Source: Thermodesulfobacteriota bacterium (GTDB lineage Bacteria > Desulfobacterota > GWC2-55-46). From it: 64,000 nt of DNA. Within the stretch, counting starts at the first letter, position 1. Every line of letters begins with the position of its first letter. Location of the stretch: contig CP129479.1 in NCBI GenBank assembly GCA_030583865.1, positions 1,476,744 to 1,540,743 on the forward strand, in the 5' to 3' direction. The notes under the pieces were generated by a model. That model did not search any database. It was not told the origin of the DNA and saw nothing but the letters and a program-made list of their open reading frames with translations. This document shows positions 1 to 55,245 of the stretch, piece by piece. A program made the translations under genes and the position numbers.

Positions 1-53
1 TGGCAATCCGTCCGTGGATTGCCTGGCATGGTGTTTTTCAACACCCTGTCAGA
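1..53 (+). repeat. repeat family A (two-hairpin PATE-like element), 3' part, truncated by window edge
   Basis: tggcaatccgtccgtggattgc...gtgtttttcaacaccctg matches 35448-35500 and revcomp of 55081-55130. Confidence 0.8.
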
Positions 54-2753: not shown

Positions 2754-2836
2754 GCTCTTCAAAAACCTCTCCTGGAATGTGATAAAACCCTTGCGGGCTG
2801 GAAACTCTATATGCACGCCTGCTGGAAAAGGACTTC

Positions 2837-2905
2837 TGGGGGAAACTTTCTGTAGAAAGGTTCCCCCAGAACCCCTGACTTTTAGTTCCTGAGAAGACCC
2901 CCAAG
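2837..2905. repeat. palindromic repeat family C copy 1
   Basis: gggggaaactttctgtagaaaggttccccc + agttcctgagaagaccccca; related to 29797-29900. Confidence 0.6.
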
Positions 2906-7046: not shown

Positions 7047-7090
7047 CTAGTTTTCGCAATCCGTATAGTCGCTTTACGCTTTTAGCTTAT

Positions 7091-7232
7091 GGCAACCTCT
7101 AAAAATCAGAAATTTTTCCTGCAATCAAGGAAGGGCGGGAATAAAAAGCGGAGCATATATGTGAATATGTGAGCATTTTTATTCACGCCCTGACGCAGAG
7201 TCCGGGTAAAATAGCAATTTTTAGAGGTTGCC
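7091..7232 (+). mobile_element. MITE family B copy 1 (16-bp TIR GGCAACCTCTAAAAAT ... ATTTTTAGAGGTTGCC)
   Basis: Perfect 16-bp terminal inverted repeats; flanked by TTAT/TTAT; between ilvC start and ilvN stop. Confidence 0.85.
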
Positions 7233-7718
7233 TTATCTCTGCTTGGGGCTCCGGGCCATTGCCACCCTTCCGGTCCGGACGATCTCCTTTATGCCGAATG
7301 GGCGGAGTAGCTCGGTAATGGCCCGTATCTTCTCCTCGTCCCCGGTTATCTCTATCGTGTAGGTCCGGGAGCTTACGTCAACGACCTTGGCCCTGAATAT
7401 GTCGACTATCGAGAGTATCTCGGCCCTGGTCTCGGCGTTGAGGTTCACCTTTATGAGGGCGAGCTCCCGCTCGATATGCTCCTCGCCGGTGAAGTCGTAT
7501 ACCTTGATGACGTTCACGAGCTTGTTCAATTGCTTGTTTATCTGCTCGAGGACTTTGTCGTCGCCGCTCGTGACGATGGTCATCCGGGATATCTTCGGGT
7601 CGAAGGTCTCGGCCACCGAGAGGCTCTCGATATTGAAGCCCCGCCCGGAGAAAAGTCCCGATATGCGCGATAGCACGCCGAACTCGTTGGTTACAAGGAC
7701 CGATATCGTATGACGCAC
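7233..7718 (-). CDS. ilvN: acetolactate synthase small (regulatory) subunit
   Basis: 161 aa; ACT domain ISVLVTNEFGVLSRISGLFSGRGFNIESL. Confidence 0.9.
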   Translation of the reverse strand: MRHTISVLVTNEFGVLSRISGLFSGRGFNIESLSVAETFDPKISRMTIVTSGDDKVLEQINKQLNKLVNVIKVYDFTGEEHIERELALIKVNLNAETRAEILSIVDIFRAKVVDVSSRTYTIEITGDEEKIRAITELLRPFGIKEIVRTGRVAMARSPKQR

Positions 7719-11713: not shown

Positions 11714-12436
11714 TTAGCGACCGCTTTTAAGCTCTGCTTCGGATTTCCGGAGGTATATCGGGACGAGCTCCGCCGGAGAGACGGCCTCCGCCGCGTGCTC
11801 GAAAGCCAGGAGCCCTACGTTAGAAGCCCTTATGTGCCAAAGGTGGGGCAAGGCCGCGTACGCGTCCCTGAGCGCCTCGACGAGCATTTCCATGTAAACG
11901 GAAAGGCCGCTCCCCAGGAATACGACTTCCCCCTCAAGCCCCCTCCCCCTTATTTCCCCTATGAGGGCCTCGGGCCGCATCGCCGAATCGGGCATGACCG
12001 CCCTGGGGCGGCCTGACATGGTATCGTAAAGGGCGGTGTATACCTCGCCCTTTCTGGCGTCGAGCACCGGGCAGACCATCCTTGCGGAATAAGGGATGTT
12101 CATGGCGAGCGAGGCGAGGGTCGAAACACCGGCTATCTTTTTCCCCTGCGGCCACGCGAGCCCCTTTAGGGCCGATATGCCGATGCGGAGGCCAGTGAAT
12201 GAGCCCGGGCCGACATCAATGGCGAAGAGGTCTACTTCGTCGAGCCCGCACCCGGCGCTCTCAAGGTGCGCTTCAAGGGACTTAAGGAGCCAGCTGGAAT
12301 GGGTCCCCGCGTCCCCGACGGTCCATTCGGAGATGAGCTTTCTATCTTCGAGGAGGGCTATCGAGCCTGACCGGGACGAGGTATCGATTGAAAGTATCTT
12401 CAGGCAACCTCTAAAAATTAGATAATTTTCCCGCAA
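11714..12436 (-). CDS. tsaB: tRNA threonylcarbamoyladenosine biosynthesis protein TsaB (YeaZ)
   Basis: KILSIDTSSRSGSIALL and VGPGSFTGLRIGIS motifs. The annotated ATG start (12434-12436) lies inside the MITE copy at 12403-12545, so the true start is uncertain. Confidence 0.7.
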   Translation of the reverse strand: MRENYLIFRGCLKILSIDTSSRSGSIALLEDRKLISEWTVGDAGTHSSWLLKSLEAHLESAGCGLDEVDLFAIDVGPGSFTGLRIGISALKGLAWPQGKKIAGVSTLASLAMNIPYSARMVCPVLDARKGEVYTALYDTMSGRPRAVMPDSAMRPEALIGEIRGRGLEGEVVFLGSGLSVYMEMLVEALRDAYAALPHLWHIRASNVGLLAFEHAAEAVSPAELVPIYLRKSEAELKSGR

Positions 12437-12545
12437 TCAAGAAAGGGCGGAAATAAAAAGCGGAGCATATATGTGAATATGTGAGCATTTTTATTCACGT
12501 AACCTACGCAGAGTCCGGGGAAAAGGTCAATTTTCAGAGGTTGCC
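12403..12545 (+). mobile_element. MITE family B copy 2
   Basis: Same termini (1 mismatch); internal segment aaaaagcggagcatatatgtgaatatgtgagcatttttattcacg identical to copy 1; flanked by TTCA/TTCA. Confidence 0.85.
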
Positions 12546-12553
12546 TTCAATGC

Positions 12554-13855: not shown

Positions 13856-13896
13856 TTCCTATCTCAATTCAAGCGTGATTTTGGCGTAAATTTCTG

Positions 13897-13998
13897 GCAG
13901 CCCCTAAAAATCAGAGATCTTCACCCGAATCAAGGAAGGTCGGGGTTATTCCCGGCCTGACGCAGAGTCGGGGAAAAGATCAATTCTTAGAAGTTGCA
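13897..13998. mobile_element. MITE family B copy 3 (shorter, degenerate)
   Basis: ggcagcccctaaaaatcag ... caattcttagaagttgc; shares gcctgacgcagagtcgggg core with copy 1. Confidence 0.55.
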
Positions 13999-14033
13999 TT
14001 TATTATACAATAAATTGCCGGCCAGTGTCGCGC

Positions 14034-29738: not shown

Positions 29739-29796
29739 CCGGTCCCCGTTGAATTAGGCCGAAAAGGCGAGCCGGCAGGTTACTGAAAAGCCCCCT

Positions 29797-29900
29797 TTGG
29801 GGGAAACTTTCTATAGAAAGTTTCCCCCCACCCCCCCTTCAAAGATTAGTTGTTCCTGAGATGACCCCCATGAATGGGGGTCATCTCAGGAACAACTAAA
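29797..29900. repeat. palindromic repeat family C copy 2
   Basis: Perfect palindrome ggaaactttctatagaaagtttcc (29802-29825) flanked by C/G runs; perfect 24-bp-stem hairpin tagttgttcctgagatgaccccca / tgggggtcatctcaggaacaacta (29848-29898). Sits in the 5' region of the archaeal-type MAT gene. Confidence 0.7.
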
Positions 29901-30651: not shown

Positions 30652-30731
30652 TGGAGACCCGTTGTTTTGGATTTGGAATTGGCGTACTTTCGTGTACGCC
30701 GGAGTGTGCAGATGGATTTTTCAGCAGCCTG

Positions 30732-33879: not shown

Positions 33880-35337
33880 GTGTTTATGGACCATGCCGAC
33901 CGACACGGAACAGAGGGAGAGCTGGAGAGGCTCAGAAGGCGGGTAAGGGAGTTGGAAAAAAAAGAGGCCGAGCACAGGCGGAGCCTCGAAGAAAACCCCG
34001 CCACCATAGAGGCCCTTATGGGGTATATACCGGAGGGCATCATAATAGCCTCCGCGCCTGACGAGACCGTGAGGATGGCAAGCAGGGAGGCGCTACGCAT
34101 GTCGGGGAACGGCGGGGAAAGCATCGAGGGGCTAAAGCTCAAGGACCTTGCCGGCAAGTGCCCGGTCTACCATCCGGACGGCAGGAAGCTCAAGGAGGAG
34201 GAAAACCCGCTTTTCATCGCTCTCCGGGAAGGCCGGGTCATAAGCGACATGGAGTTCACGCTCCGGAGGCCCGACGGGAGCGAGATATTCGTCCTCGCCA
34301 ACGCCGGCCCGGTCTTCGATAAATCCGGTAAGCTCCTGGGCGCGATAGTCTCATGGAGGGACATAACCGCTAGGAGGAGGGCCGAGCAGGCCGTCTTAAG
34401 GGAACGGGGGCTCCTTAAAAGGGTGCTTGCCATATTGCCCGTGGGCGTGTGGATACTGGACGGTAGCGGCAACATCGTGGAGGGGAACGAGGAGGGACAG
34501 AGGATCTGGGGCGGCATAAAGCAGGTCGGCATCGAGGGCTACGGCGAGTACAAGGCATGGTGGGCGGAAAACGGCAAGCCCATCCCGTCGCACGAATGGG
34601 CGGGCGCAAGGGCCATTGAAAGGGGCGAGACCTCCGTAAGCGAAGAGGTGGAGATCGAGGGCTTCGACGGGGCGCGCCGGTTCATAATCAATTCGGCTGT
34701 GCCGCTCACCGATGAAAAGGGCGGGATAACCGGCGCGGTCACGGTAAACCAGGATATAACGGCGAGGAAGCTCGGCGAAAGGATGCTCGCCGAGGCCCAG
34801 CGTACGGCAAGGCTCGGGAACTGGATATGGGAGCCTGAAAGGGACCAGATATGCGGCTCGAGCGAGGCGTACAGGATATTCGGCCTCCGGGAAGGTCAGC
34901 CCATGAACATGGAGGAGTTCATAAAGATGGTGCATCCGAACGACAGGGAGGCACTCAACAACGCCATAAGTGACGCGCTCGCCGGAGGCGGCGGGTACGA
35001 GTTCGACTTCAGGGTGGAGGTCAGGGGCGAGACTAAATACGTCCAGGCCATCGGCAGGACCGAGTTTCGTAACGGAAAACCGGTGGCCGTAAGGGGCACG
35101 GTCCAGGACATTACGGAACGGAAGAGGACGGAAAACGAGCTGAGGGAGGCGCTCGCCCGCATAAAGACCCTTAGCGGCCTCATACCCATCTGCGCGAACT
35201 GCAAGAGGATCAGGGACGACAGGGGCTACTGGATGAGAATAGAAAAATATATAGAAGACCGCTCCACCGCCGAATTCACGCACAGCCTCTGCCCGGACTG
35301 CGAAAAACGGCTTTACGAAGATGACAAGGCTGCCTGA
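33880..35337 (+). CDS. signalling protein with three PAS/PAC domains and a C-terminal Cys4 zinc-ribbon-like tail (no kinase or GGDEF output)
   Basis: 485 aa; three PAS S-box repeats each ending with DIT(A/E)RK; tail IPICANCKRIRDDRGYWMRIEKYIEDRSTAEFTHSLCPDCEKRLY. One of only two plus-strand genes. Confidence 0.7.
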   Translation: MFMDHADRHGTEGELERLRRRVRELEKKEAEHRRSLEENPATIEALMGYIPEGIIIASAPDETVRMASREALRMSGNGGESIEGLKLKDLAGKCPVYHPDGRKLKEEENPLFIALREGRVISDMEFTLRRPDGSEIFVLANAGPVFDKSGKLLGAIVSWRDITARRRAEQAVLRERGLLKRVLAILPVGVWILDGSGNIVEGNEEGQRIWGGIKQVGIEGYGEYKAWWAENGKPIPSHEWAGARAIERGETSVSEEVEIEGFDGARRFIINSAVPLTDEKGGITGAVTVNQDITARKLGERMLAEAQRTARLGNWIWEPERDQICGSSEAYRIFGLREGQPMNMEEFIKMVHPNDREALNNAISDALAGGGGYEFDFRVEVRGETKYVQAIGRTEFRNGKPVAVRGTVQDITERKRTENELREALARIKTLSGLIPICANCKRIRDDRGYWMRIEKYIEDRSTAEFTHSLCPDCEKRLYEDDKAA

Positions 35338-35340
35338 TCG

Positions 35341-35500
35341 GCCTATCAGGACGTTGAAAAAGTCTTTCCTGGACTTTTTCAACCACGGCCTGGCCGGAAT
35401 GAATCCGTCCAAGCCTCATAAATTGCTCGACATTTTCAGCCATTGCAATTTGGCAATCCATCCGTGGATTGCTTAGCAGGGTGTTTTTCAACACCCTGCT
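35341..35500 (+). repeat. repeat family A, full copy (hairpin 1 at 35353-35383, hairpin 2 at 35475-35500)
   Basis: ~90% identical to revcomp of 55078-55245. Terminal hairpins gttgaaaaagtc..ggactttttcaac and agcagggtgtttttcaacaccctgct. Lies between convergent stop codons. Confidence 0.85.
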
Positions 35501-36908
35501 ACCCCCTTTTCCACCCGGAAGGGGCGCTCCCCGGCCCCTTTATGCCCAGCTCGCGCATCTTGAGGAGGAGCGTATTCCTGTGGATCTTGAGCGCCCTCGC
35601 CGTTTCAGCCCTGTTCCAGTTGGCCTTGTCCAGCGCGCCTTTTATGTAGCGCCTCTCGAAGGCCTTGACCGCTTCCTTGAAATCCAGCGTCATCTCCTTT
35701 CCCGGAGCCGCCTCGTCCGCTAGCGCCGGCATGCCCATCGGCAGGTCGTCGGCCCTTATGAGACCCCCCTCGGGCGCGAGCACCACGAGCCTTTCCAGGA
35801 GGTTTTCAAGCTCCCTGATGTTCCCGGGCCACCCGTAATCCATGAACGCCCTTATGACCTCCGGATGGACCCCCTCCACCCTCTTGCCGCACTTCTTGGA
35901 GAGCTTTTCGAGGAAATGCTCGACGAGCAAAGGCACGTCCTCCTTCCTCTCCCTCAAGGGCGGGAGCTCTATGGGCACAACCTTGAGCCTGTAGAAGAGG
36001 TCTTCCCTGAAGCGGCCCGCCGAGACCTCGTCCTCAAGGCGCGCATTCGACGCCGCTATCACCCTTATGTCGATCGTGATGGAAGAATTCGAGCCGACCC
36101 TTTCGAAGGACCTCTCCTGCAGCACCCTTAGGAGCTTTATCTGGAGGTGCATGGGTAGCGTCGATACCTCGTCAAGGAAGAGCGTGCCAGTGTCGGAGTG
36201 CTCGAACTTCCCGATCTTCCTCTGGTGCGCCCCGGTGAAAGCCCCCCTCTCGTGCCCGAAGAGCTCGCTTTCCATGAGCTCTGATGGCACCGCCCCGCAG
36301 TTCACGGCCACGAAGGGCTTCTCCCTCCTGTCGCTCATGAAATGAATGGCCCTTGCGACGAGCTCCTTGCCGGTGCCGCTCTCGCCCGTTATGAGCACCC
36401 CTGACGAGGTCCTGCTCACCGCCTGCATGAGCCCGAAAACCTTCCGCATCGCGGGCGACCTGCTTATCATCTCGCCGTTCAGGTACCTGAGGCCGTTCCG
36501 CTCGTTAAGCTCTTCCTTGAGGAACTCGATTTCGCTCTTGAGCTTAAGCCCTTCGGACAGCCTCGATAGTGTGGCAAGGAGCTCATCCCCGTCAAAGGGC
36601 TTGGCTATGTAGTCGTAGGCGCCTTTCCTGAGGGAGGATACCGCCTGCTCGGCGCTGTCGAGGGCGGAGAGCATTACGACCTCGATCGAGCCGTCGAGCT
36701 CCTTCAACCGCCCGAGCGTTTCAAGCCCGTCCATGCCCGGCAGCTTAAGATCCAGGAGCACTATTTCCACCGGCCTCGAACGTGCCAGAGAGAGGGCCTC
36801 ATGGCCGGTCCGGGCCTTCAGGACCTCATAGCTCTCCCTGAGGAGTATCTCGAGCGCGCCCGTTACGAAATCGTCGTCGTCCACTACGAGGACAAGTGGT
36901 TTTCTCAT
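35499..36908 (-). CDS. sigma-54-dependent response regulator (NtrC family: REC-AAA+-HTH)
   Basis: VLVVDDD receiver; GESGTGKE Walker A; GAFTGA sigma54-contact motif; C-terminal HTH. Stop codon lies in terminal hairpin of repeat A copy. Confidence 0.85.
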   Translation of the reverse strand: MRKPLVLVVDDDDFVTGALEILLRESYEVLKARTGHEALSLARSRPVEIVLLDLKLPGMDGLETLGRLKELDGSIEVVMLSALDSAEQAVSSLRKGAYDYIAKPFDGDELLATLSRLSEGLKLKSEIEFLKEELNERNGLRYLNGEMISRSPAMRKVFGLMQAVSRTSSGVLITGESGTGKELVARAIHFMSDRREKPFVAVNCGAVPSELMESELFGHERGAFTGAHQRKIGKFEHSDTGTLFLDEVSTLPMHLQIKLLRVLQERSFERVGSNSSITIDIRVIAASNARLEDEVSAGRFREDLFYRLKVVPIELPPLRERKEDVPLLVEHFLEKLSKKCGKRVEGVHPEVIRAFMDYGWPGNIRELENLLERLVVLAPEGGLIRADDLPMGMPALADEAAPGKEMTLDFKEAVKAFERRYIKGALDKANWNRAETARALKIHRNTLLLKMRELGIKGPGSAPSGWKRG

Positions 36909-41439: not shown

Positions 41440-41580
41440 GGCAATCTCTAAAAATCAACCTTTTACCCGGATTCCGTTCAGACGTGGATGAAAATGCACA
41501 CATATTTATCATGCATGTATGCATCGATTTTTATTCCCGGCCTTTATTGCGGGAAGAATCTCAAATTATCAGAGGTTGCT
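41440..41580. mobile_element. MITE family B copy 4 (diverged)
   Basis: ggcaatctctaaaaatcaa ... aattatcagaggttgct termini; different internal sequence. Confidence 0.55.
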
Positions 41581-50685: not shown

Positions 50686-52026
50686 TCACTTCGCGCCCTG
50701 GGCCTTGCGGGCCTCCTGGCGGAGCCTGAGCTTCCCGACCCGTATCCACTGTATCAGGGGCCTTTTCGCGGGGCACACGTAAGAGCAGCAGCCGCACTCT
50801 ATGCAGCTAAGGCCGTCAAGGGCGCTGAACTCGGCGGTCATCTGAAGCTTTCCGTAATCCCCAAGCCTGTAGGGCATGAGGCCCATAGGGCAGACCTCCA
50901 CGCAGCTGGCGCACTTTATGCAGGGCTCGTACGGCTTCGACCTTATCTCGTCGGCGGAGATGACAGTGATGCCGGTCGTTCCCTTCGTGACCGGCACCGC
51001 GAGAGTCGATTGCGAATTTCCCATCATGGGCCCGCCGTTAAGGACCTCTAGCTCTTTCCCGACGAGCCCGCCGCACTGCGCGATAACCTCCTCGAAGAGG
51101 GTACCCACGCGGACCTTGAGGTTCTTCGGCTCCCTTACGCCGTTCCCGCTTATGGTGACCACCCTCTCGAAGAGGGGCTTCCCCCAGTTGAGGGCCTCGA
51201 ATACGGCGACCGCCGTGCCCACGTTATTTACGAGGACCCCGACGTCGAACGGGAGCTTCCCCGGGGGCACTTTCCTACCCACGGCGGCCGATATCAGCAT
51301 CTTCTCGGCACCCTGCGGGTACTTGGCCTCGAGGACGATTATCTTTATCTCAGGGGAGCCGGATACCGCCTTTGCAAGGGCCTCAATCGCGTCAGGCTTA
51401 TTCTCCTCAATGCCTATGAAGCCCTTTGACGCGCCCGAGGCCCTCATGAGGGCCTTGAGCCCCCAGACCACCTTTTCCGGCTCCTCGGCCATTATCCTGT
51501 GGTCTGCCGTAAGGAACGGCTCGCATTCGCAGCCGTTAAGTATGACCGTATCCACGGCCCTACCCTTAGGGGGCGCGAGCTTGACCGATGAAGGGAAGGC
51601 CGCCCCTCCCATGCCGACTATCCCGGCCTCCCTTATGGCCTGGCGCACGGCCTCAGGCTGGAGCGTTCCGACGTCAACGCCTTTGGTGCCAGTGCCCCAC
51701 TCCCTTCTCAAGCCGTCGCCCTCGATTATGACAGAGGCGCACCTGTAGCCGTTGGGGTGGTTTGCAAGCTCGATATCCTTCACTTTTCCGGAGATGCTCG
51801 CGTGGACCGGGGCGGAGACGAAGGCCTTGACGTCGGCTATCTTCTGTCCTTCCTGGACAGACTCGCCCTTCTTGACAAGGGGCTCGCAGGGCGTTCCGGC
51901 GTGCTGCTGCAGCGGTATGACTACCGTCCTGGGCAGGGCAGCCGGCTCGACCCTCTTGCCGGAAGTAAGCTCTTTATAATAAGAGGGATGGATCCCTCTT
52001 TCAAACGTCCTGTGTCCCATTCTCAA
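50686..52026 (-). CDS. rnfC: Rnf complex subunit C
   Basis: 446 aa; NADH-binding GMGGAAFP; two C-terminal 4Fe-4S motifs CIKCASCVEVCP / CIECGCCSYVCP. Confidence 0.9.
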   Translation of the reverse strand: MRMGHRTFERGIHPSYYKELTSGKRVEPAALPRTVVIPLQQHAGTPCEPLVKKGESVQEGQKIADVKAFVSAPVHASISGKVKDIELANHPNGYRCASVIIEGDGLRREWGTGTKGVDVGTLQPEAVRQAIREAGIVGMGGAAFPSSVKLAPPKGRAVDTVILNGCECEPFLTADHRIMAEEPEKVVWGLKALMRASGASKGFIGIEENKPDAIEALAKAVSGSPEIKIIVLEAKYPQGAEKMLISAAVGRKVPPGKLPFDVGVLVNNVGTAVAVFEALNWGKPLFERVVTISGNGVREPKNLKVRVGTLFEEVIAQCGGLVGKELEVLNGGPMMGNSQSTLAVPVTKGTTGITVISADEIRSKPYEPCIKCASCVEVCPMGLMPYRLGDYGKLQMTAEFSALDGLSCIECGCCSYVCPAKRPLIQWIRVGKLRLRQEARKAQGAK

Positions 52027-52066: not shown

Positions 52067-52401
52067 GATAATTAGAGCTCAGGATCCGGGACCATCCCCC
52101 CAGTGCCGTCCCTGCTCGACCAACTCACAATAAAAAAACCGTCACGGCACCGCATCCAGCAATCGTAAATGCTGAATGTTTGGCCCAGACGGTCGGCAAG
52201 CGCACTGTTATTCCCGCTCCCCGGTGGTTGCCCACCTTGATTCCGTCAGTTACGGGAAAATTTTATGGGGAATTTATTAGAAACATCTTAATCCAGGACC
52301 GCGGGCCTTGTCAAGGATTAATCGAATTGAAATCCCGGTGCGGAAGCCTTTCCGGCGTACCCTGCCAAAGCGCAGGGGACATTGCAAATTGCCCGGCGCG
52401 C

Positions 52402-53088
52402 CTATTCATCCCCCCTGAATAGCCACACAATAAGGGACGCCGCGGCCATGATGAGCCCGGCGCCGACGAGCAAAACGCTCAAAGCAGTCATGGGTAAAAC
52501 CGATTGGGCTGCCCCCGCCTCTCCGAGCGCCGTCGTCCGCAGGCCCGCTATGATGAGCGATAGAGGATAGAAGAAGCTCCCGGTCCCGAGCAAGGCCGCT
52601 GCCAGGGCCCTGGCCCATGAACTTACCGGAACCCAGGCCAGCATCAGGGATATGCTTATCGTGAGCACGCCGAGGCCCATCGCGTGGACATGGGCACTTG
52701 CGAGCAGTTCATGCGCGGCCCTCATATCGCGGCTCTCGCCTGAATCGGAATGCGCATCCTCGTGTCCGCCATGCATTTCATGCCCGGCGTGGGCGTCCAT
52801 TCCGTCCGGCACGGACATGCCGCTGCCTTCATGCCCGTGAAGGCCGCCCTCAATGTGCGAGTGTCCGTTCCCCTGCCTTGCGCCGTGCGCCCCATGCCCT
52901 CCCCCGCTGCTCAATACGAACTTCTCCGCGATGGAGGCCTTTTCGGCAAGACCGAGCTCCGTGTGTATGTCTTCGTGGTAGACCGTAATGTAGACCGCCC
53001 AGAAGACCCCGAAGACCACGCACGAAAGCCCGAGCAAAAGACCTATCCCCACAACCTTCAGTTCACGTCCCGCCTCTTTTTTCTTCAT
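52402..53088 (-). CDS. His-rich 4-TM membrane protein (putative metal-binding)
   Basis: 228 aa; ~70-aa loop with 18 His (HGAHGARQGNGHSHIEGGLHGHEGSG...HAGHEMHGGHEDAH); start overlaps htrA stop by 1 nt. Confidence 0.5.
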   Translation of the reverse strand: MKKKEAGRELKVVGIGLLLGLSCVVFGVFWAVYITVYHEDIHTELGLAEKASIAEKFVLSSGGGHGAHGARQGNGHSHIEGGLHGHEGSGMSVPDGMDAHAGHEMHGGHEDAHSDSGESRDMRAAHELLASAHVHAMGLGVLTISISLMLAWVPVSSWARALAAALLGTGSFFYPLSLIIAGLRTTALGEAGAAQSVLPMTALSVLLVGAGLIMAAASLIVWLFRGDE

Positions 53089-54880: not shown

Positions 54881-55077
54881 TGACTCCCGGCCTTACTTGG
54901 CTTTCGCAAGGCCCGCCTATCAAGACAGGCGGGCCTTGTGAACTTATACAATAAAAGCGCGCTGAAATCCACTCCTCTGCCTCGCCAACGAATTATTGGA
55001 TATTGCCGCCTGAACTGGTATAATCGACCCGCTCCGCCTGATGCGCGTTTTTCAGATATGGGCCGCCGGAAGTTTCT

Positions 55078-55245
55078 TTTAGCAGGGTGTTGAAAAAACA
55101 CCCTGCTAAGCAATCCACGGATGGATTGCCAAATTGCGAAGACTATCCAGGTCGAGCAATTTGTAAGGCTTGGACGGATTCATTCCGGCCAAGCCGTGGT
55201 TGAAAAAGTCCAGGAAGGACTTTTTCAACATCCTGTTAGAGGAAA
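55078..55245 (-). repeat. repeat family A, full copy in inverted orientation
   Basis: Reverse complement matches 35341-35500; 50 bp upstream of the cytochrome c start. Confidence 0.85.

Follow-up and report, generated by a model that had tools for sequence, protein, structure and literature searches.

The window analysed here, a stretch of 64,000 nucleotides, holds three copies of a short repeat with a hairpin at each end, and the question is what kind of element this repeat is and how it came to be dispersed. A first-pass annotation had described it as a dispersed, non-autonomous, structured mobile element; the many further copies and the filled/empty polymorphism reported below bear this out. 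The same annotation had likened it to an IS200/IS605-derived PATE, a reading contradicted by terminal inverted repeats (TIRs), by a 4-bp direct duplication and by the IS5-family DDE transposases encoded on ISs with matching ends. Because TIRs, a 4-bp duplication and an empty site were found, together with the same TIR class on IS5-family ISs, we consider it highly probable that the element is a 152-153 bp non-coding MITE derived from the IS5 family, in which only the two IS ends have been kept.

Copies in the window

The three copies are located where the first-pass annotation had placed them and are, as it had noted, about 90% identical; we refined their limits to 1-48, 35347-35498 (plus strand) and 55083-55235 (minus strand), and refer to them as A, B and C. 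A conserved 21-mer occurs three times in the window, against 0.01 occurrences expected by chance, and a repeat search of the window recovered copies B and C as 146-nt arms with 90% complementarity. Copy A (1-48, plus strand), delimited by repeat comparison, is cut by the window edge and comprises the 3' part of the element, namely hairpins 4 and 5 and the 3' TIR. Its flank at 49-52 reads TCAG, where TCA is the TGA stop codon of a minus-strand gene that ends at 49.

Copy B (35347-35498, plus strand) is a full-length MITE of 152 bp, from CAGG to CCTG, as defined by repeat alignment and by the comparison of filled and empty sites. It lies between two convergent genes, one for a PAS-sensor (ending at 35337) and the other for a sigma-54 activator (ending at 35499). 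The filled/empty comparison also identified its target-site duplication, CTAT on the left (35343-35346) and CTAC on the right (35499-35502), both read on the plus strand. The TAG stop codon of the minus-strand activator gene (35499-35501) is located within the right duplication. Two candidate starts of the activator were tried in a search for an exact-protein match, and none was on record.

Copy C (55083-55235, minus strand), also full-length according to the repeat alignment, is 153 bp long and is found in a divergent intergenic region between a glycosyltransferase gene (start about 54880) and a multihaem cytochrome gene (start 55286). Its target-site duplications are identical: the one at the 3' end (55079-55082, minus strand) is CTAA in the element orientation, that is TTAG on the plus strand, and the one at the 5' end (55236-55239, minus strand) is again CTAA in the element orientation. 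Only chance frames of 51-85 codons run across the 152-153 bp of the element. Just outside copy C, a sigma-70-like promoter match (TGGATA-16-TATAAT with an extended TG; 54997-55024, plus strand) is directed through the copy toward the cytochrome gene. If this promoter is used, copy C would be a part of the 5' UTR of the cytochrome gene.

Terminal inverted repeats and hairpins

The element had been thought to have no terminal inverted repeat. This is wrong, as CAGGATGTTGAAAAAG at the 5' end matches CAGGGTGTTGAAAAAC, the reverse-complemented 3' end, and of the first 18 positions of the consensus, 16 are shared by the 5' end (TAACAGGATGTTGAAAAAG) and the reverse-complemented 3' end (TAGCAGGGTGTTGAAAAAC). 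In copy B, the alignment to the consensus places the 5' TIR (CAGGACGTTGAAAAAG), which resembles the transposase-proximal end of an IS, at 35347-35362, and the 3' TIR at 35483-35498, within hairpin 5 (both on the plus strand). The subterminal sequences GTCCTTCCTGGAC... and ...GGCAATCCATCCGTGGATTGC are specific to this MITE family.

Both terminal hairpins are present as the first-pass annotation had described them, and folding of both strands, which it had proposed, gave five consecutive hairpins on either strand, with energies of -68.9 and -77.7 kcal/mol and z-scores of -8.1 and -9.2 relative to dinucleotide shuffles. All five were located on the plus strand of copy B. Hairpin 1 (GTTGAAAAAGTC / GACTTTTTCAAC; 35353-35383), detected by folding and by the repeat search, is formed by the inner half of the 5' TIR and an inverted copy of that half inside the element. 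Hairpin 2 (GGCCTGG..CCAAGCC; 35387-35415), detected by folding and RNAalifold, shows compensatory replacement of GC by AU in the E14 subfamily. Hairpin 3 (AAATTGC..GCAATTT) extends over 35420-35451. Hairpin 4 (GGCAATCCA TCCG TGGATTGC; 35452-35472) is the most conserved segment of the element and the source of our search pattern. In hairpin 5 (TAGCAGGGTGTT TTTC AACACCCTGCTA; 35473-35501), the 3' TIR is paired with an internal mirror copy that includes TTAG, the mirror of the CTAA flank, and the stem extends into the right target duplication. RNAalifold retained all five hairpins, with compensatory changes at seven pairs, although a few events at the subfamily level account for this covariation. 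All five hairpins are inherent in the element DNA and would also fold in a read-through transcript of either strand; any role for them is speculation.

The apical loop of hairpin 3 is the stretch that the first-pass annotation had called a hypervariable centre of about 20 bp. This description was overstated for the centre as a whole, and holds for about eight positions of the loop, with a column identity of 50-70% among 30 copies. Most copies carry GACCTGGATAGTCTTC or GACTTTTTTAGTCTC in this loop, and copy B is a divergent variant. The idea of a structurally selected, guide-like hypervariable centre fails, as the stretch is an ordinary fast-evolving hairpin loop; likewise, we ruled out a guide-RNA-like reading because the centre is common to most copies.

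Copies in other genomes

A scan of one genome per species with the pattern GGCAATCCNTCCGTGGATTGC yielded 40 loci, of which about 36 are true copies in five Deltaproteobacteria-labelled MAGs: H5_GWC (GCA_015075075.1; at least 16 pattern loci), E14_metabat.bin.95 (E14; at least 18), WY3.bin34, NC_groundwater_1641 and NC_groundwater_1645. Three other pattern matches, in Rhodoferax and Verrucomicrobiales, look like chance. The search for further copies elsewhere that the first-pass annotation had suggested was thus productive: nhmmer run over the 40 loci found 54 matches, 32 of them near-full-length, in both orientations and in intergenic DNA, and some of the 8-kb loci contain two copies. Altogether, at least 50 copies of the element are present across the five uncultivated Deltaproteobacteria MAGs. 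Since the copies are only about 85-97% identical to the consensus, there is no sign of current activity.

At the gathering score, the only Rfam match in the window is a ZTP riboswitch away from the element, and at E<=10 the element itself gave only two chance miRNA matches of 13 bits. BLAST of the element against PLSDB plasmids returned no match, nor did the exact 5'-end pattern in IMG/VR viral contigs. With no match in Rfam, PLSDB or IMG/VR, the MITE family appears to be undescribed. The ZMP/ZTP riboswitch (52176-52263, minus strand; 63.5 bits vs a gathering score of 39) is directly downstream of a minus-strand ORF for a histidine-rich membrane protein (52402-53088) and upstream of another minus-strand ORF (50686-52026).

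A long variant of 246 bp was observed in locus L008 (186-431) and also in L005, L007, L010, L015, L025 (E14 MAG) and L016. In it, an insert of about 95 nt lies between hairpins 3 and 4 and opens with another stem similar to that of hairpin 4 (GCACAATCCA...TGGATTGTGGC). A deletion between the two similar stems could have produced the short form from the long variant.

Filled and empty sites

The PAS-sensor encoded upstream of copy B has orthologues with identities of 94, 92, 86, 84 and 82%, and the contigs with the 94, 92 and 86% relatives were compared at the copy B locus. At 94%, L045/L046 are filled, with contigs that end inside the element. Two relatives are empty. Where the window reads ...GGC CTAT (152 bp) CTAC CCC..., the empty relatives have a single CTAC or CTAT: ...GCC CTAC CCT... 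in GCA_019912665.1 (L047, with Logan contigs L048-50; PAS 86%) and ...GCC CTAT TCC... in H5_GWC (L051; PAS 92%). The PAS-sensor and sigma-54 activator genes also converge in L047 and L051, with a gap of only 16 and 5 bp, respectively. As the H5_GWC locus is empty, the insertion of copy B postdates the split from H5_GWC. The target tetranucleotide contains the TAG stop codon of the activator gene, which is intact after the insertion.

At copy B, CTAT and CTAC differ by a single later substitution, and the empty sites vary at this very position. The copy B site alone is compatible with a 2-, 3- or 4-bp duplication. For the cytochrome gene next to copy C we found four Logan contigs, all of which end inside the element, and no empty site was seen among them. 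Comparison of orthologous loci of H5_GWC and E14 gave clear presence/absence differences, in intergenic DNA too diverged (about 70%) for the junctions. Contigs that break inside the element are as expected for a repeat, and such elements fragment short-read assemblies of groundwater and sediment Deltaproteobacteria.

Target duplication

The flank profile of the copies is C-T-A-(A/T) on the 5' side and (C/A)-T-A-(A/G/T) on the 3' side, with an almost constant TA on either flank and, for both sides, a YTAR-like C/T-T-A-A/G/T profile. In a set of 70 TIR pairs flanked by xTAx, direct 4-bp repeats that are not palindromic were found 20 times, against 7.3 +/- 2.3 expected, and none of 5000 shuffles reached 20. 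Inverted 4-bp flanks were found in the same 70 pairs only twice, against 7.1 expected. Atypical direct flanks were also observed (GTAG/GTAG, ATAA/ATAA and TTCA/TTCA), and CTAT/CTAT is duplicated as well. We conclude that the target is a YTAR-like tetranucleotide that is duplicated over 4 bp, because direct flanks are enriched, because atypical pairs are direct and because ISs with the same TIR class have CTAG or TTAG flanks. The motif duplicated by IS5 is 5'-YTAR-3' (PMC5009759).

Against a direct 4-bp duplication, inverted flanks (CTAT/ATAG, TTAG/CTAA) are found in three MITE copies (L004 2648-2798 and 5580-5733, and L023 2628-2776) and in one IS (L130 655-1914). In the three MITE copies, the base beside the 3' TIR and the internal mirror arm of hairpin 5 change together.

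IS5-family relatives with the same ends

The TIR class of the element can be written as CAGG(A/G/C)TGTTGAAAAA, that is CAGG(A/G/C)TG(T/C)TGAAAAA (16 nt). We scanned metagenomes for the shared end motif CAGGNTGNTGAAAAAGTCC. Among the matches listed, the class abounds in environmental DNA and mostly belongs to other MITE families of 100-250 bp. The listed matches also include a 1319-bp IS (L094), which runs from CAGGCTGCTGAAAAAC... to ...CAGCAGCCTG between two CTAG flanks, a 1260-bp IS of the same TIR class (L130) and partial elements (L149, L152 and L085). Three identical IS copies of 1311 bp (L173-175) were found in one Nibricoccus MAG, with the flanks CTAG/CTAG, TTAG/TTAG and CTAG/CTAG, and L176/L177 are further autonomous elements with the same TIR. 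In L094, L130 and L173-177 the ends read CAGG(C/G)TGCTGAAAA(A/T)(C/G) on both sides. The 5' end of the MITE resembles the transposase-proximal IS end (...TGAAAAAGTCC), and its 3' end resembles the distal one (...GAAAAAC).

The transposases of L094 and L130 are 362 aa long and consist of DUF772 and DDE_Tnp_1 domains. They match the NCBIfam model NF033581, "IS5 family transposase", with 235 and 263 bits (cutoff 140), compared with 364 bits for InsH of E. coli IS5. Close homologues number in the thousands in public data, where NCBI names them IS5 family transposases, e.g. in Nibricoccus and Opitutaceae MAGs. The ISs of this TIR class come from other organisms and phyla, e.g. Verrucomicrobia. In about 330 kb of loci from the MITE-bearing MAGs, no autonomous IS with the subterminal sequence of the MITE family was found, and where TIRs in the MAG loci were paired at the spacing of an IS, they belonged to other MITE families only, not to an IS. 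We infer, rather than observe, trans-mobilisation by an IS5-family transposase in this lineage.

According to the proposed mechanism, an IS5-family DDE transposase supplied in trans would bind the 16-nt TIRs CAGG(A/G/C)TG(T/C)TGAAAAA and excise or copy the element, which would be inserted at a YTAR-like tetranucleotide (CTAA, CTAG, TTAG or CTAT); repair of the 4-bp staggered cut would then duplicate the target. The element has what the definition of a bacterial MITE names (PMC2229807; PMC10969869): it is non-coding and shorter than about 300 bp, has TIRs and a duplication seen by comparison of filled and empty sites, and exists in multiple dispersed copies. As to the IS5 group, its ends match those of ISs with an IS5-family DDE transposase, and its duplication is 4 bp long and YTAR-like. 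The TIR class CAGGxTGxTGAAAAA and the 4-bp YTAR duplication thus provide a clean link between this MITE and a widespread, unnamed clade of IS5-family ISs.

The same flanks could also be read in terms of an IS630/Tc1-mariner-type MITE with a 2-bp TA duplication and TIRs that begin one base further out (N-CAGG). The nearly invariant TA on both flanks and the empty site of copy B are compatible with such a duplication, and the three copies with CTAT...ATAG flanks and the IS L130 with TTAG...CTAA fit a TA followed by a complementary terminal base. However, non-palindromic direct 4-bp flanks are strongly enriched and inverted ones depleted, the IS copy L174 is flanked by TTAG/TTAG, the TTCA/TTCA flanks do not contain any TA, and the transposases of the matching ISs belong to the IS5 family and not to DDE_3/IS630. 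We therefore rejected the IS630-like TA duplication suggested by the TA flanks and the CTAT/ATAG copies, on the grounds of the IS5-family parents and the statistics of the direct 4-bp flanks, and regard this reading as very unlikely.

Insertion at stop codons

An ORF of 100 or more codons has its stop codon within the duplicated tetranucleotide in 15 of the 28 full-length copies, at the 5' side of the element in six cases and at the 3' side in nine. About half of the full-length copies are therefore placed exactly on the TAA or TAG stop of a gene. As a control, about 11% of the non-coding TA sites in CTA/TAG context in the same loci overlap such a stop, a rough value that depends on greedy ORF calls. 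YTAR holds TAA or TAG on one strand or the other, and the duplication restores the stop codon on the gene side; for this reason, insertions into stop codons are neutral. An insertion into a stop leaves a complete stop, which accounts for the many surviving copies that abut gene ends. The enrichment could result from selection, from target preference or from both. Neutral insertion at gene ends, made possible by a target that contains a stop codon and a duplication that restores it, may help explain the distribution of MITEs in compact genomes.

The position of the copies after genes also bears on the proposal that the element serves mainly as a functional RNA or regulatory module, i.e. an sRNA gene, a 3'-UTR stabiliser, a terminator or a protein-binding REP-like site, in which case the repeats would be a result of selected function and not of transposition. 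Its folding is very stable (z of -8 to -9), seven base pairs show compensatory changes, and half of the copies come immediately after stop codons. On the other hand, there is no Rfam match and no promoter- or terminator-like signal in or at the element, and the covariation stems from few subfamily-level events. Genes abut either end of the element (six its 5' end and nine its 3' end), so that no single RNA strand is favoured as the functional one. The TIRs, the duplication and the empty site show that the element spreads by transposition, and we give a primary RNA function a very small probability. A secondary, exapted RNA role of the IS5-derived MITE is possible. A specific form of it, with stop codons as safe-harbour sites and the symmetric five-hairpin body, co-transcribed in either orientation at the ends of genes, retained as a 3'-end RNA stabiliser or a convergent-gene insulator, is a tentative suggestion that we think is probably incorrect. 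For annotation in general, such elements give rise to spurious ORFs and could be taken for sRNAs or guide RNAs in naive scans.

Other repeats in the window and in the same MAGs

A second, unrelated MITE-like family of about 150 bp is present in the window at 7089-7235, 12401-12549 and 13894-14002, with a fragment at 41514-41580 (minus strand). Its TIRs are GGCAACCTCTAAAAAT...ATTTTTAGAGGTTGCC, and its flanks, TTAT/TTAT and TTCA/TTCA, suggest a 4-bp duplication in this family as well. In L011, a sequence related to this family adjoins the RNase P RNA gene.

The MAGs with copies of the window element also contain a MITE family of about 123 bp with near-perfect TIRs (CAGGCTGCTGAAAAAG) of the same class as those of the window element. 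Copies were located at L013 7249-7371, L023 4471-4593, L028 93-224, L032 6395-6516, L037 1168-1289 and L039 7317-7439, and often have an extra outer TIR copy at one end. In the window, this family is represented only by a lone TIR-like remnant (30716-30731, minus strand), and many more variants of its TIR class are found in metagenomes. In L032 (4257-4500), a truncated MITE of the CAGGCTGCTGAAAAAG class, about 75 bp long, comes 2 bp after a copy of the 152-153 bp element; here MITEs are clustered at one YTAR-rich spot upstream of accB/accC.

A G/C-capped palindrome, GGGGGAAACTTTCT(A/G)TAGAAAG(T/G)TTCCCCC, is found at two intergenic sites of the window (2822-2868 and 29783-29828). Beside the latter site there is a perfect palindrome of 26+26 nt (29846-29899).

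Comparison with known systems

PATEs (palindrome-associated transposable elements), to which the element had been likened, lack both TIRs and a target duplication and rely on a Y1 TnpA. An IS200/IS605-derived PATE would be moved as single-stranded DNA by a Y1 HUH TnpA that acts via subterminal hairpins, and would be inserted without duplication 3' of a fixed tetranucleotide. The window element is likewise short, non-coding and dispersed, with a different stable hairpin near each end, and a conserved CTA precedes its 5' end and also ends its 3' side, which taken alone could mimic the left and right cleavage motifs. However, it has a TIR that matches at 16 of 18 positions, as IS200/IS605 elements do not; hairpins 1 and 5 differ in sequence and are dissimilar in the same orientation, unlike what recognition by TnpA requires; its variable 4-bp flanks are duplicated directly (GTAG/GTAG, ATAA/ATAA, CTAT/CTAT and TTCA/TTCA); the full-length elements that were found to have these ends carry genes for IS5-family DDE transposases rather than for a HUH/Y1 TnpA or TnpB; and its copies lie beside genes in both orientations. 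With TIRs, a 4-bp duplication and DDE-transposase relatives, it differs from PATEs to such an extent that this origin is hardly credible. A REP/REPIN-type element mobilised by a RAYT, which a palindrome-rich extragenic repeat often located between convergent genes might call to mind, is just as implausible, as REPINs are doublets of one 20-40 nt palindrome without target duplication, whereas our element combines five distinct hairpins with TIRs and a 4-bp duplication, and its full-length relatives belong to the IS5 family.

IS5 of E. coli and the IS5 group of the IS5 family are among the closest known systems. IS5 encodes the transposase InsH and has a 16-bp TIR and a 4-bp YTAR target duplication. 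Like IS5, the full-length elements of the MITE's TIR class are 1.26-1.32 kb long and have 16-nt TIRs and 4-bp CTAG, TTAG or CTAA duplications, and like InsH, their single transposase matches NF033581 with its DUF772 and DDE_Tnp_1 domains. The IS5 TIR GGAAGG-TGC-GAATAAG and CAGGCTGCTGAAAAAG look alignable by eye with two 1-nt gaps, but the details differ, and identity between the matching transposases and InsH amounts to only about 28% over 130 residues. Unlike IS5, the window element lacks a transposase gene and is only about 152 bp long, and the hosts of the MITE are uncultivated Deltaproteobacteria-labelled MAGs.

Among bacterial MITEs, Correia/NEMIS of Neisseria, RUP of S. pneumoniae and Chunjie of Geobacter uraniireducens are likewise shorter than 200-250 bp and non-coding. 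They share with the window element the TIRs, the target duplication, a multi-copy and mostly intergenic distribution, strong folding and an inferred trans-mobilisation by an IS transposase, without any sequence similarity to it. Correia and RUP duplicate TA, and RUP has been linked to IS630, whereas the window element has the IS5-type 4-bp YTAR duplication. The window element represents a new family within an ordinary, familiar class and involves no new mechanism or system; what is unusual about it among bacterial MITEs is its five hairpins, with each TIR paired with an internal mirror copy.
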